DNA of 22,562 bases from Candidatus Hodarchaeota archaeon (GTDB lineage Archaea; Asgardarchaeota; Heimdallarchaeia; Hodarchaeales; Hodarchaeaceae). The first letter of the stretch is position 1; the number at the start of each line of letters is the position of its first letter. The stretch spans positions 1-22,562 of the forward strand of contig JAEOTM010000035.1 of the NCBI GenBank assembly GCA_016839815.1. The letters are read 5' to 3'. The notes under the pieces are model-generated. The model saw nothing but the letters and a program-made list of their open reading frames with translations, did no database searches and was not told the DNA's origin. The translations under genes were made by a program, and so were the position numbers. Positions 9,627 through 15,390 of the stretch are shown here, piece by piece.

Positions 9627-11948
9627 TTATTTCCTTTTACGTAGGTAGACAATGGTGAGGATCACTATTGGTAGAAGGTACAGTTCAAAACCAGGGGATA
9701 ATGAGGGGATTGTAGTGGTTTGAGGATCCTCTGATGTAAGAGGTTTTTCAGGAAGAACTTCAAACTCAAACTCTGTATAATACTGCCCTGCAGTGGAATT
9801 GACAATCATCCAGAGTTTATATTGACCAACTGTATCAAAAGTGAGATTAAATCCAGCTTGCCAAGTGTCACCTGGATAAAGAGTATGAACCATTTCTTCA
9901 AATACAGGAGTGTCAGTTCCTTGTTGATCGGATACGGAAGCGATCACATAGAAATCATGTGTTTCATTGGAATAATTAGTTACTCGTAAAACTCCAATTT
10001 CAGTTTCATTGACTGTTATCGAAGAGGAAAAATCAATAGATAGTGCCATATCTCCTTCATAGATATCCCACCAGCAATAACATTCCCAGTTAACGGAGTG
10101 ATCATTTGCATCTTCCAGATAGAAATAGACATCATAAAAACCTGGTTCGTGGAATGTGAAATAGAGGGAATAGACCCATTCAGCTTCAGGTTCTAGGATA
10201 ATGTCATGCATTTCATCGTTAAATAGTACTACACCCTGATGTTCAATTACAATTTCTATGTTGACAAGTAGTGGTTCAGCAAAGTGGGTCTTGACATGGA
10301 ATTCATGGTAGACTTCCTGCCCTACTAGAGCTTCGTAGTCTTGATTAATCCACATTTCTATTGCATCTCCAGGCTTATCATAAACTTCCCACCAACAGGT
10401 GGCCGTCCATCGTTCACCAGTTGCTAATCTCACGTAGAAAAAGACGTAATAATCTCCAGGTTCATAGAAAGTATATTCAGTAGATGTCCACCAATAATTC
10501 TGAGAATAGAGAGTGGTATTGGAACTCCAATAGAGAGAATGATTTCCAGAGGTAGGTGTAGCTATTTCAACATAGATTTCGACATTAGTAAGGGGATATG
10601 AGAAATTGGAATAGACTTGGAAATCTATCCATCGTGTTTCACCAACTTCAGCATTCATATCTTGGAAGATTTGGAGCCAGAGGAATTCAGGGTCATCAAA
10701 TACTTCGTACCAACACGAAGTTACCCATTGATCCCCAATATCGTCAGTTAAAGTAAGCTGGACATCATAATGACCAGATTCTGGGAAAAGATAATTTAAA
10801 TTGATTGTCCAGACACCACCAGCAGGAATGAGAACTGAAGAATTGGAATATAGGACTGTAGTTGTAGAAGGACCAAACATTTCGATTTTTATTGTAACAT
10901 TCATATCATGACCAAAATAGGATTCGACGTAAAAATACATCCAAGAATAGTTACCAACTAAGCCAAAATTGTCTTGATCAATCCATAGATAGAAATGCTC
11001 GGGTTCTACTTCCCAATAACACCACTTATCCCATACTTCTCCAATATCATCAATCAAATACAGAAAAACGTCATAATGGCCAGAATAAGTAAATGTATAA
11101 CCTAAAGTAATATTCCAATGGCCATAATTCGAGATATAAACATTTTCGTTGTAGTAGAGAGAACTATTAGACTCTGGGCCAACCATGACTACACCAATAG
11201 TTACATTGGGCATGGTATGATTGAAGTAAGATAGTACATTGAATGTCATCCAACGTGTTTCACCTACACGAGCATAATAATCTTGATCTATCCAGAGTTC
11301 AAAGTATTCTGGAATTTCAAAATCTGAGGTAATCTCAATATCATCAAGGCACCAGCCTCGATAGTTATTTGCCGCAGAATCCACAGTGTCAAATGAGAAT
11401 TTAATATACACATTGCTCGAATTAAGATAGGAACTAATATCAAAATAAATTAACTGCCAAGAGGGTTCTCCCTCAACAATTACATTCCCAAGATACGACC
11501 AAGAAATTCCTCCATCAATTGATATCAGAATATTTTTTTGATCGTAATAATCTCCTTCTTCTGTTTCTGCCCAAGACCAGAAAGTAAGAAAGGTTTGTCC
11601 TGTAAAACCAGTTAAGTCAAGTCTATCTGATATTAGCTCACCTAAGTTTGGAGTATCGGTATTATTAATGTCATATGTCTCATAGTTTTCTGTGGTAGCA
11701 TTACCATACCAGGCATATTTTGTGCCACTTGGAATTCCACCTAATGGATCTGAAGCGTTGTTATAATCTTCAACATGCCAAAGACCTGTCGCTGTCCATG
11801 CGGAGAAAGCAGATCCCTCAAAATCTTCAAAATAATCGTCCCCAAGACTCGCGGTTACAGGTAAGGGTTCTTTTGGTAGGAAAATTCCAATAAACAACAA
11901 TAAACAAAGAAGTCCAAATAAACTTTGTACTTTCACATTAAACACCAA
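9627..11948 (-). CDS. Membrane-anchored surface glycoprotein: signal peptide, MAM/cleaved-adhesin-like beta-sandwich, five Ig-like repeats, PGF-type C-terminal sorting signal
   Basis: N-terminal hydrophobic stretch LFGLLCLLLFIGIFL. Residues ~38-207 run from YFEDFE through LISDRLDL, ISIDGGISW and GWCLDDIEI. Five ~103-aa repeats follow. The C-terminus is TTTIPSLSPGF plus a TM helix plus RKRK. 19 N-x-S/T sequons by hand count. TTG/GTG start. Confidence 0.85.
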   Translation of the reverse strand: MVFNVKVQSLFGLLCLLLFIGIFLPKEPLPVTASLGDDYFEDFEGSAFSAWTATGLWHVEDYNNASDPLGGIPSGTKYAWYGNATTENYETYDINNTDTPNLGELISDRLDLTGFTGQTFLTFWSWAETEEGDYYDQKNILISIDGGISWSYLGNVIVEGEPSWQLIYFDISSYLNSSNVYIKFSFDTVDSAANNYRGWCLDDIEITSDFEIPEYFELWIDQDYYARVGETRWMTFNVLSYFNHTMPNVTIGVVMVGPESNSSLYYNENVYISNYGHWNITLGYTFTYSGHYDVFLYLIDDIGEVWDKWCYWEVEPEHFYLWIDQDNFGLVGNYSWMYFYVESYFGHDMNVTIKIEMFGPSTTTVLYSNSSVLIPAGGVWTINLNYLFPESGHYDVQLTLTDDIGDQWVTSCWYEVFDDPEFLWLQIFQDMNAEVGETRWIDFQVYSNFSYPLTNVEIYVEIATPTSGNHSLYWSSNTTLYSQNYWWTSTEYTFYEPGDYYVFFYVRLATGERWTATCWWEVYDKPGDAIEMWINQDYEALVGQEVYHEFHVKTHFAEPLLVNIEIVIEHQGVVLFNDEMHDIILEPEAEWVYSLYFTFHEPGFYDVYFYLEDANDHSVNWECYCWWDIYEGDMALSIDFSSSITVNETEIGVLRVTNYSNETHDFYVIASVSDQQGTDTPVFEEMVHTLYPGDTWQAGFNLTFDTVGQYKLWMIVNSTAGQYYTEFEFEVLPEKPLTSEDPQTTTIPSLSPGFELYLLPIVILTIVYLRKRK
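9756..11306 (-). repeat. Five tandem ~103-107 aa Ig-like (CARDB-like) protein repeats, aa ~215-731
   Basis: Repeats begin LWIDQD, LWIDQD, LQIFQD, MWINQD, LSIDFS. They share F-x-x-[SP]-G-x-Y-x-V (TFDTVGQYKL in repeat 5) and end CYWEV, CWYEV, CWWEV, CWWDI, FEFEV. Short DNA-level identities remain between repeats (cgtgtttcacc occurs in repeats 1 and 3). Confidence 0.85.
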
Positions 11949-11988: not shown

Positions 11989-12119
11989 GTGAGTAGTCTA
12001 GAATTTAAAAATCAGTCTGAATGGATTTTCCGCCATCGAAAACAAACTAGAGAAATTCTTCGATTGTGATAATATTTTTCAACAATAAATCATTAAAAGT
12101 TGGCCAAAACTCAAAGAAT

Positions 12120-12863
12120 ATGAGTAGAATGGATTCAAAAAAAAAGCCGATTTTGGAATTTGCTAATCCCATCCGAATCGATATTCTTCAAAAGTTAAGC
12201 ATCTTTCCATCTTCATTTACTTCCCTCACAAAACAATTAGCGATCTCCAATTCAGAAGTCTCCCGCCATATCAATAGACTTATAGAGCAGAAGCTTGTAG
12301 AAAAAGAATCAGGGTCAAAAAATTTAAAATTAACTTCTTTTGGAGAACTTTTAATTGGTGTTTATTCCCCTCTTGACTTTATCTTTTATTATGCTGATTA
12401 TTTTAAGGAACATGATTTAATTGATCTTCCTATATCCTTTTTACGGAATTTAGATTATCTTATGAATAGTGAATTAATACAGGGGTCGGGAAATGTGATG
12501 TTGAAACTACAAGAGATTACAGAGGGATTAAAAAGTGAAGTATGGATCATGACTGATCAAGCGTTCCCAGTTGGTAAACTTTCGATGGATACACGTTATT
12601 TGGTGCCACCAGAGATGGCAAAATTTCGTCCTAATATTGAAAATTTTAATCGGAGTACTCTTGCACGTGTTTTACCTCATATTTCCACTGCTCTATTAGT
12701 AGCAGATGGTGAAACGGGAATGATATTCTTCTCCGATACTAAGGGAACACCTGATTTTACAAAGGGATTCTATGTGCAAAAAGGAGATGAAGAAGGCATT
12801 AAGTATCTTTTACGTATATGGGAATATTATTGGGAAAGAGGGGAAATACCTATGGAGAAGTAG
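12120..12863 (+). CDS. ArsR-like winged helix-turn-helix transcriptional regulator with archaeal C-terminal effector domain (DUF1724/TrmB-sensor-like)
   Basis: FANPIRIDILQKL...FTSLTKQLAISNSEVSRHINRLIEQKLVEK...LTSFG is a wHTH. It is followed by YFKEHDLIDLP and a C-terminal IWEYYWERG. ATG 12120 or 12129 is likelier than the GTG at 12066. Confidence 0.8.
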   Translation: MSRMDSKKKPILEFANPIRIDILQKLSIFPSSFTSLTKQLAISNSEVSRHINRLIEQKLVEKESGSKNLKLTSFGELLIGVYSPLDFIFYYADYFKEHDLIDLPISFLRNLDYLMNSELIQGSGNVMLKLQEITEGLKSEVWIMTDQAFPVGKLSMDTRYLVPPEMAKFRPNIENFNRSTLARVLPHISTALLVADGETGMIFFSDTKGTPDFTKGFYVQKGDEEGIKYLLRIWEYYWERGEIPMEK

Positions 12864-14949: not shown

Positions 14950-15390
14950 ATGCAACCTAATTTATCAGAAACAGCAAAAGATACTATGTCAAAAAAAGGG
15001 TATAACTGTTCCCAAGCAATATTTGCCACTTATGGAGGACAAATGGGCCTAGGAACAGTTGACTATGATACCTGTTTGAAGATTTCTTCAGCATTTGGTG
15101 GTGGAATTGTTCGAACGGGAAATATTTGTGGGGCTTTAACTGGTGCACTGATGGTAATCGGTCTTAAATACAGTGGAGACAAAGGAAAAAATCAAGAAGA
15201 AGTTAACCGAGTTGGAGGACAATTTTTAAATGAATTTAAATCTCTTAACGGATCAATAATCTGTAGAGAGCTTATCAAACACGATTTAATATCGAAAGAA
15301 GATGTAGAACATGCATTCAAGACAGGAGCATTTGGTAACTGTCCAAAATTCGTTAAAGAAGTCTCTAAGATGCTCGAGAAACTGTTATAA
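14950..15390 (+). CDS. C-GCAxxG-C-C family putative redox-active protein
   Basis: GYNCSQAI, SAFGGGI, GNICGALTGA, GSIICREL and NCPKFV give the full four-Cys signature. TTAAATA box at 14921-14927. Confidence 0.9.
   Translation: MQPNLSETAKDTMSKKGYNCSQAIFATYGGQMGLGTVDYDTCLKISSAFGGGIVRTGNICGALTGALMVIGLKYSGDKGKNQEEVNRVGGQFLNEFKSLNGSIICRELIKHDLISKEDVEHAFKTGAFGNCPKFVKEVSKMLEKLL

Follow-up and report, generated by a model that had tools for sequence, protein, structure and literature searches.

The window analysed here is a stretch of 22,562 nucleotides from Candidatus Hodarchaeota archaeon (contig JAEOTM010000035.1, positions 1 to 22,562), and the gene under study lies on its reverse strand (Table 1). 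Translation of window positions 9630-11948 gives a protein of 773 amino acids composed, in this order, of a signal-like N-terminus, a jelly-roll head, five repeats of ~100 amino acids and a putative PGF-type (Heimdall-CTERM-like) anchor. The neighbouring genes encode an MFS transporter, an ArsR-type regulator, HisRS and a glycogen/starch synthase-like glycosyltransferase, and no maturation enzyme was found among the genes flanking 9627-11948. The protein database contains one identical protein and 21 homologs of the 773-aa protein. All homologs listed with an organism name are from Asgard archaea, the host taxonomy being taken from the source names of the homologs. The host is an Asgard archaeon of the Hodarchaeales type, and the gene product is an adhesin-like protein of its cell surface; the original prediction, which had called it an archaeal surface protein, agrees with the host and with the named homologs. 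The succession of head, stalk and sorting signal parallels the architecture of the bacterial TIE adhesins.

Table 1. Features of the surface-protein gene, in window coordinates
Feature	Residues (aa)	Position	Strand	Gln/Cys positions (codons)	Basis or remark
Whole gene, 773-aa surface protein	1-773	9627..11948	(-)		ORF list and translation; TTG start listed, true start uncertain
N-terminal hydrophobic, signal-like segment (putative)	1-29	11862..11948	(-)		Sequence reading; homologs start with similar hydrophobic leaders
Head, probable MAM / Reelin subrepeat-B / gingipain cleaved-adhesin / CBM-type jelly-roll, with Asp-box	30-215	11304..11861	(-)		Pfam, AF2, Foldseek
Repeat 1	216-318	10995..11303	(-)	Q222 (11283-11285), C310 (11019-11021)	
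Repeat 2	319-420	10689..10994	(-)	Q325 (10974-10976), C412 (10713-10715)	Modelled repeat
Repeat 3	421-528	10365..10688	(-)	Q429 (10662-10664), C518 (10395-10397)	
Repeat 4	529-633	10050..10364	(-)	Q536 (10341-10343), C625 (10074-10076)	Extra C623 (10080-10082)
Repeat 5	634-735	9744..10049	(-)	F640 and F727 in place of Gln and Cys	Membrane-proximal, degenerate
Thr/Pro-rich linker and putative PGF-type C-terminal sorting signal		9630..9743	(-)		Tail comparison with homologs

The head matched Pfam families below threshold: Reelin_subrepeat-B reached 22.1 bits for a cut-off of 27, a family also matched sub-threshold by 20 of 26 homologous heads, and an InhA-like MAM family was hit in the same way. 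Foldseek, run on the AlphaFold2 (AF2) model of the head (pLDDT 88), retrieved reelin, meprin MAM and Kgp adhesin domains at TMq 0.55-0.66, as well as CBMs, and this modelling suggests that the head is a ligand-binding-type jelly-roll. At the other end of the protein, the tail consists of SPGFE, a hydrophobic helix and RKRK, and can be aligned with the tails of the homologs. Two of the latter (P0019 and P0011) score 25.4 with the NCBIfam Heimdall-CTERM model NF045529, above its cut-off of 24; this model gave no match at E<=0.1 in the 773-aa protein itself. The sole archaeosortase-like match in the genome, which is 89.5% complete, is a weak one.

The interval originally singled out, window positions 9756-11306, corresponds to aa 215-731 and covers the repeats. 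Four of them had been described as pairing a Gln in the opening strand with a Cys in the closing strand, both replaced by Phe in the fifth. Translation and a codon check confirmed all of these positions (Table 1), the Gln-to-Cys spacing of 87-89 aa is correct, and the motifs WIDQD, WIDQD, QIFQD, WINQD and W-x3-C-[WY]-[WY]-[ED]-[VI] were all found. In a MAFFT alignment of the five repeats, the Gln residues share a single column, as do the Cys residues, and repeat 5 matches the repeat profile with an E value of 1.8e-10. Repeats 1-3 have one Cys each and no second one, as had been noted; the additional C623 of repeat 4 lies two residues before C625, and repeat 5 is devoid of Cys. Exactly one Cys is present in almost every repeat of the family, and an intradomain disulfide is ruled out because there is one Cys per repeat.

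The Ig-like beta-sandwich initially proposed for the repeats is supported by the AF2 model of repeat 2, an all-beta sandwich of 104 residues (pLDDT 96.8), and by its structural matches. The best of these were the CARDB domain of PF1109 (3IDU, 2KL6) and the FnIII domains of RbmA (4BE6, 4KKQ), with Z scores of 13-14 and an rmsd of ~2 A over ~100 residues (for 3IDU_B, Z 13.3, rmsd 2.0 over 98 residues and Foldseek TM 0.79). The model has the seven to eight strands of a CARDB-type beta-sandwich, and it places the repeat fold among sandwiches of the CARDB / RbmA / transglutaminase-barrel / macroglobulin (MG) type. Moreover, the repeat profile searched against the PDB found 2KL6 and 3IDU at E 0.008-0.011, CARDB being the sole full-domain profile match, and an ESM Atlas feature search returned only CARDB-like leads, all sub-0.9. 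The Pfam CARDB model (PF07705) had no match in the 773-aa protein (hmmscan, E<=1). PKD (PF18911 / PF00801) reached 19.6 bits, short of the 27 required, and its match was confined to the strand F-G motif GxYxVxLxVxD (aa 383-407). CARDB of PF1109 from Pyrococcus furiosus and RbmA of Vibrio cholerae match in fold at 11-13% identity, and a Gln/Cys signature is described for neither.

In the modelled repeat, the first strand runs in two segments, 3-9 and 12-14, and ends with the Gln; the last strand spans residues 91-101 and has the Cys at its middle. Each of the two residues lies on the conserved face of its strand. Q9 extends the hydrophobic periodicity F3-L5-I7 and C96 extends the periodicity W92-x-C96-W98-V100; since each residue fits the periodicity of its strand, both are expected to face the core. 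We infer from this arrangement that the two side chains are in contact in repeats 1-4.

The original prediction also stated that Gln and Cys vary together, and in the homologs the pair does co-evolve. A first set, drawn from 22 homologs with 28-66% identity, comprised 130 repeats; 112 of these had both residues and none had Gln without Cys. The wider set of 275 repeats from 65 proteins contained both in 238, Gln without Cys in 11 and Cys without Gln in four, so that the covariation seen in these alignments is strong, but not absolute. By direct coupling (DCA), columns 9 and 96 were mutual best partners, followed by 21-98 and 12-97; in this mean-field analysis of ~250-300 repeats, gap and indel artefacts dominate, and only these three pairs are usable once gap-prone columns are removed. 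On the repeat tree, Gln and Cys were lost jointly about six times for 0.62 expected, ~10 times the chance level, and none of 20,000 branch-length-weighted simulations of joint changes reached six. A test of independent pairs on supported branches provided only four pairs for Gln and one for Cys, too few for significance. Repeats lacking Gln and Cys retain F72 (97%) and G76 (100%), and the loss is therefore specific; general degeneration of these repeats is ruled out as its cause. The Gln/Cys signature of these stalk domains is real, undescribed and Asgard.

How constrained the two columns are was estimated from the number of parsimony changes. G76 (7 changes), Q9 (16) and C96 (21) rank first to third, for a median column of 110, and the core aromatics F72, Y78 and W98 changed 23, 29 and 29 times. 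Because the constraint on Gln and Cys is similar to that on the core aromatics, it is by itself no proof of chemistry. It would also suit a non-covalent buried polar pair, two residues touching in the core and conserved for packing and folding, with hydrogen bonds from the Gln amide to the thiol and/or to the main chain at the A/A' switch. We regard this reading as a serious possibility that nevertheless falls short of an even chance. Where Gln is kept, the Cys is replaced by Ser (4), Asn (4), Thr (1), Asp (1) or Tyr (1), all of them small or polar residues able to hydrogen-bond, never by Ala, Val, Leu or Ile, and the divergent proteins P0054, P0038 and P0109 carry Q-N or Q-S pairs throughout. 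Variants that combine Gln with Asn, Asp or Tyr are incapable of a cross-link and are expected for a hydrogen-bonded pair. The absence of conserved catalytic residues points the same way. However, Cys forms hydrogen bonds poorly, and still the residue found alongside Gln is Cys in 238 repeats and Ser or Thr in only five. An invariant buried Gln in the first strand of a stalk repeat, matched by a lone Cys in the last, is moreover the signature of known cross-linked domains.

A Cys-Gln thioester staple in stalk repeats 1-4 is the most likely single chemistry, and we propose it tentatively, at somewhat less than even probability. The core-facing Gln at the sheet switch of the first strand (A/A') would contact the lone Cys, which points into the core from the middle of strand G, the last one. 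The two would meet within a Trp/Met-rich pocket formed by W92, W98 and M21 (repeat numbering). On folding, the thiol would attack the Gln amide and NH3 would leave, generating a thioester without outside help. The first strand would be tied to the last, and each repeat would become a closed loop, protected against force and proteolysis in the way that bacterial stalks are by their isopeptide and ester bonds. Against this proposal, thioesters are labile to nucleophiles such as the ammonia and sulfide expected in anoxic sediment, and in Spy0125 they are reported to have given no stabilisation (PMC4282584).

Among the closest parallels to such a staple are the ester domains of the Cpe0147 type (PDB 4NI6; T450C variant, 9BLO), which are likewise Ig-like, repeated in tandem and part of a stalk that carries an adhesive head. 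These domains bond a nucleophile to a Gln, NH3 being released, and the two residues lie in the first and the last strand, as is proposed for the Asgard repeats. Mass spectrometry of the engineered T450C variant confirmed a Cys-Gln thioester that links the first strand of an Ig-like domain to the last (PMC12679949). Only ~3% of the protein carried this cross-link, and the crystal structure contains an unlinked Cys beside the Gln, an unreacted state that also fits the non-covalent pair (PMC12679949). However, in the Cpe0147 type the nucleophile (Thr/Ser) belongs to the first strand and Gln/Glu to the last, whereas the Asgard repeats have the reverse order, with Gln first and Cys last. They also lack the HxDxxDxxQ motif and the His/Asp/Glu/buried-acid machinery of ester domains, have no sequence similarity to them and occur in archaeal rather than Gram-positive hosts. 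Membership of the ester-bond family was rejected on the missing motif, the reversed residue order and the lack of a conserved His or acid. The CnaA/CnaB and CLIPPER domains likewise form the stalks of sorted surface proteins and have an autocatalytic staple in their repeats, although the bond residues are missing from some repeats of a family (PMC12617251). Their Lys-Asn/Asp bond, catalytic Glu/Asp and CnaA/CnaB folds differ from the CARDB/MG-like Asgard repeats, which have no conserved Lys column or acid (the whole protein contains 13 Lys), and they were set aside as well.

Natural Cys-Gln thioesters occur in bacterial thioester domains (TEDs: SfbI, Cpa, SaTIE 6FX6) and in complement C3 and alpha-2-macroglobulin (A2M), where Cys SG is joined to Gln CD in the bond proposed here. 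In TEDs and C3 the thioester forms spontaneously in an aromatic-rich buried pocket, like the one envisaged for the Asgard repeats, and the MG domains of C3/A2M resemble the repeat fold (Z about 12). However, TEDs and C3d have different, larger folds, and in TEDs the Cys precedes the Gln. The repeats do not belong to the TEDs, as there was no Pfam TED match, the fold is an all-beta sandwich, the order is Gln then Cys, and TQxx-aromatic-W is absent. The thioester motif of C3 and A2M is CGEQ, set in an alpha-helical TED; C-x-E-Q was found in none of the seven Cys contexts, which leaves only the MG-domain fold in common with C3 and A2M. The thioester of TEDs and C3 is a warhead in one domain, in contrast to a staple repeated along a stalk, and a reactive thioester that captures a partner surface covalently, perhaps when exposed by force, was also considered for the Asgard repeats. 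The known natural Cys-Gln thioesters are warheads (PMC10619420), and the protein is adhesin-like. This role is nevertheless highly improbable: each protein has four to eight copies, which make up the stalk rather than the tip, the two residues point into the interior of a sandwich that is compact and only 100 aa long, and the repeat fold is unrelated to that of TEDs.

The Cys might instead act as a metal ligand together with neighbouring acids, as a redox or persulfide site, or in an intermolecular disulfide linking stalks. Of the solved structures that sequence comparison can detect, the closest relative is CARDB of PF1109 (3IDU), which crystallised together with di-metal ions, and acids are frequent just after the Gln (D/E at position 10 in 74%) and at Cys+3 (position 99, 54%). 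However, these acids are equally frequent in repeats without Gln and Cys and lie on the opposite, exposed face of the strand, whereas the Cys is core-facing. The repeat alignment contains no conserved His, Asp or Glu specific to Gln/Cys repeats, nor a second conserved Cys, and a metal site leaves the coupling of Cys to Gln unexplained. Asgard hosts are taken to be anaerobes, which makes disulfides unlikely. Taken together, another role of this kind is unlikely.

The original prediction knew of no description of such a thioester staple in an Ig stalk or in archaea. This stands for the Cys-Gln staple, since no description of a natural example in an Ig-like stalk was found in the literature. It does not stand for cross-linked archaeal stalks in general: isopeptide-type stalk domains (DUF11/CLIPPER) have already been predicted in archaeal adhesins (PMC12617251), and therefore only the thioester chemistry and this repeat fold would be new. 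The Asgard stalks may be built from domains of a new self-cross-linking class, in which an autocatalytic Cys-Gln thioester joins the first strand of a CARDB/MG-like sandwich to the last and so closes it, a proposal that we put forward with reserve and at clearly less than even likelihood. Such a class would add a fourth kind of intramolecular staple to isopeptide, ester and disulfide bonds, one that needs no catalytic triad and might respond to force or to nucleophiles.

A real bond would mean that a natural thioester serves as a structural staple for the first time, and that stalk domains able to cross-link themselves exist beyond the CnaA/CnaB and ester folds, again a first. Protein ligation might also gain a reversible, thiol-based tool from a domain of 100 residues that needs no catalytic residues to close itself. 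If the bond is not real, the repeat family is nevertheless a stalk domain restricted to Asgard archaea and so far undescribed; its buried Gln-Cys pair is unusual and invariant, and the family marks a set of adhesin-like surface proteins. Cell-cell contacts of Asgard archaea are central to models of eukaryogenesis, and a real bond would place a staple on the cell surface of these archaea, the ones most closely related to eukaryotes.

The Gln/Cys feature lies wholly within a single gene whose product, composed of an adhesive-type head, a stalk and a putative sorting signal, has the layout of a fibrillar adhesin (see table). The closest homolog, P0003, begins ~18 residues further in, and the true start is thus uncertain. 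The AF2 model of the head (pLDDT 88) resembles reelin, meprin MAM, gingipain cleaved-adhesin and carbohydrate-binding jelly-roll domains, and 20 of 26 homologous heads also match the Reelin subrepeat B family. The tail can be aligned with those of homologs passing NCBIfam Heimdall-CTERM. Judging from sequence, 19 N-x-S/T sequons (aa 64-717, across head and repeats) suggest that the protein may be heavily N-glycosylated. The ArsR/HTH_5-type protein could regulate the surface-protein gene, and the PF09719 protein has no evident connection with the surface protein. Both source-genome paralogs carry a PGF-type tail at the C-terminus, and together the three proteins contain 11 repeats having the first-strand Gln and last-strand Cys (Q/C repeats). 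The archaeosortase-like frame matches TIGR04125 weakly (24 bits, cut-off 75), with no PF09721 match; the enzyme processing the PGF/Heimdall-CTERM tails may have diverged or be missing from the assembly.

Features of the surface protein, its gene neighbours and related loci in the source genome (G000)
Feature	Position	Strand	Description
Surface-protein ORF	window 9627-11948	-	773 aa
Start codon	window 11946-11948		TTG, sole start upstream of signal-like segment
N-terminal leader	aa before 30	-	Hydrophobic, signal-like
Head	residues 30-215		Pfam Reelin subrepeat B and MAM matches, both sub-threshold
Stalk			Five repeats, ~100 aa each, C-terminal to head
C-terminal region			Thr/Pro-rich linker, then SPGFE, hydrophobic helix, RKRK
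Winged-helix regulator	window 12066-12863	+	ArsR/HTH_5-type, 265 aa, transcribed divergently to surface-protein gene
C_GCAxxG_C_C protein	window 14950-15390	+	Putative redox-active, PF09719 (E 4e-29), few genes from surface-protein gene
Paralog L003/L008	contig C151, ~18.8-20.7 kb		~592 aa, four Q/C repeats, non-Q/C last domain, no head
Paralog L004/L009	contig C101, ~36.9-38.7 kb		~575 aa, same jelly-roll head, three Q/C repeats
L011	contig C6:43802-44122		257-aa frame; the genome (89.5% complete) has no other archaeosortase-like match

The original prediction placed Gln/Cys pairs at Q222/C310, Q325/C412, Q429/C518 and Q536/C625, 87-89 residues apart, with Phe at both sites (F640/F727) in repeat 5. 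The codons and spacing bear this out and, in an alignment of the five repeats, all Gln share one column and all Cys another. Of the seven Cys in the protein, the leader and the head contribute one each, the latter not conserved among homologs; repeats 1-3 have one apiece and indeed lack a second, and repeat 4 has two (C623, C625). A metal, redox or disulfide role for the paired Cys seems improbable.

The AF2 model of repeat 2, built on an alignment of 121 repeats (mean pLDDT 96.8), has eight strands (3-9, 12-14, 18-27, 33-42, 47-58, 63-71, 76-85 and 91-101). Its top structural matches are RbmA FnIII domains, CARDB PF1109, transglutaminase/factor XIII beta-barrels and the MG domains of C3 and A2M (Z 12-14, rmsd ~2 A across ~100 residues). 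Sequence-level matches are limited to CARDB (E ~0.01) and to a PKD-domain strand F-G motif; of the defining CARDB features, the repeats share the fold only. The Gln (residue 9) ends strand A, which is separated from A' by a two-residue break, and the Cys (residue 96) lies halfway along strand G. Judging from the periodicity of conservation, F3-L5-I7-Q9 share a single face of strand A, and W92-x94-C96-W98-[VI]100 a single face of strand G; since the positions in between are acidic or variable, both Gln and Cys face the core, and we infer that their side chains are in contact.

A word-index search gave 22 homologs (28-66% identity), those with names all being from Hodarchaeales, Heimdall or Kariarchaeaceae. 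An exhaustive profile search gave 60 proteins with E<1e-30, the named distant members again being Asgard MAGs; matches confined to profile positions ~67-95 resemble generic PKD-type domains reached via the strand F-G motif. Of the 275 full-length repeats, drawn from 65 proteins, 238 have both residues, 11 have Gln alone (with S4, N4, T1, D1 and Y1 at the Cys site), four have Cys alone (H3 and M1 at the Gln site) and ~22 have neither. The pair-less repeats sit mostly at one stalk end, usually the membrane-proximal one, as in the surface protein. Divergent repeats of the homologs P0038, P0043, P0045, P0054, P0093 and P0109 keep the full WIxQ[DE] ... Wx3-X-WW motif with Ser, Thr or Asn at the Cys site; the Q-Ser and Q-Thr forms could be ester-bond analogues, and the Q-Asn forms cannot cross-link.

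The covariation expected of such a pair was found. In a tree inferred from 265 repeats with both columns left out, Gln changes 12 times, Cys 14 times and their joint state 20 times, and therefore ~6 events are joint, against 0.62 expected under branch-length-weighted placement (6 was reached in 0 of 20,000 simulations); supported pairs were too few for an informative formal independent-pairs test. The co-loss is specific, because non-Q/C repeats retain F72 (97%) and G76 (100%). Double replacements shift together in character (Ser/Ser, Phe/Phe, Phe/Ile), as side-chain contact predicts. By DCA, columns 9 and 96 are each other's best partner, and the next clean long-range pairs, 21-98 and 12-97, are consistent with a pairing of A' with G and a clustering of Q9, M21, C96 and W98. 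In Q/C repeats, Met21 (strand B) is conserved in 64% and Trp98 (strand G) in 73%, versus 34% and 38% in pair-less ones, which, with the coupling, suggests a Q9/M21/C96/W98 pocket. Columns 21 and 98 correspond to M337 and Y414 in repeat 2. The DCA ranking is topped by a mutually high block (columns 32, 33, 53, 55, 56 and 74) that is probably an artefact of indels or subfamilies.

TED and C3 thioesters form spontaneously. In the stalk repeats, the Cys and Gln would likewise form a thioester by themselves, tying the first strand to the last, a reading that we hold as plausible but tentative. It is favoured by the position of the pair, which coincides exactly with that of isopeptide and ester staples, the lone Cys in each repeat, the strong preference for Cys over Ser/Thr (238 vs 5), the aromatic-rich pocket and the adhesin architecture. 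The same residues could, with slightly less confidence on our part, form a non-covalent buried polar pair: Q/C repeats have no conserved acid or base that pair-less ones lack, natural variants match Gln with Asn, Asp or Tyr, and the pair is not more constrained than the core aromatics. Residue-state changes are fewest at G76 (7), followed by Q9 (16), C96 (21), F72 (23), I7 (27), Y78 (29) and W98 (29), with a median column at 110. Chemical precedent counts both for and against the thioester staple: in an Ig-like domain of the adhesin Cpe0147, the engineered T450C mutant forms a Cys-Gln thioester confirmed by MS, but only ~3% is cross-linked and the crystal form is unlinked (PMC12679949). The two readings remain close.

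The repeats fail the defining features of TED, C3/A2M thioester proteins, ester-bond stalk domains and isopeptide domains alike. The thioester of the Mobiluncus giant adhesin lies in the N-terminal TED, outside the Ig-like repeats, and the authors of that study consider a stabilising role unlikely (PMC10619420). A warhead-type thioester in the present repeats is very unlikely. Nucleophiles of natural ester domains are reported to be Thr or Ser only (PMC12679949). Isopeptide stalk domains have CnaA/CnaB folds only and have already been predicted in archaeal adhesins (PMC12617251), so that cross-linked archaeal stalks are not new per se; for a CARDB/MG-like fold, no Cys-Gln staple was described in the literature searched.

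Of the proposed domain, the Ig-like sandwich fold and the constrained pair are thus retained, with the thioester as its hypothetical element. What is established is a Gln-Cys pair that is constrained, co-evolves, faces the core and joins the first strand to the last in the stalk repeats, which form a real, undescribed and apparently Asgard-restricted stalk-domain family.
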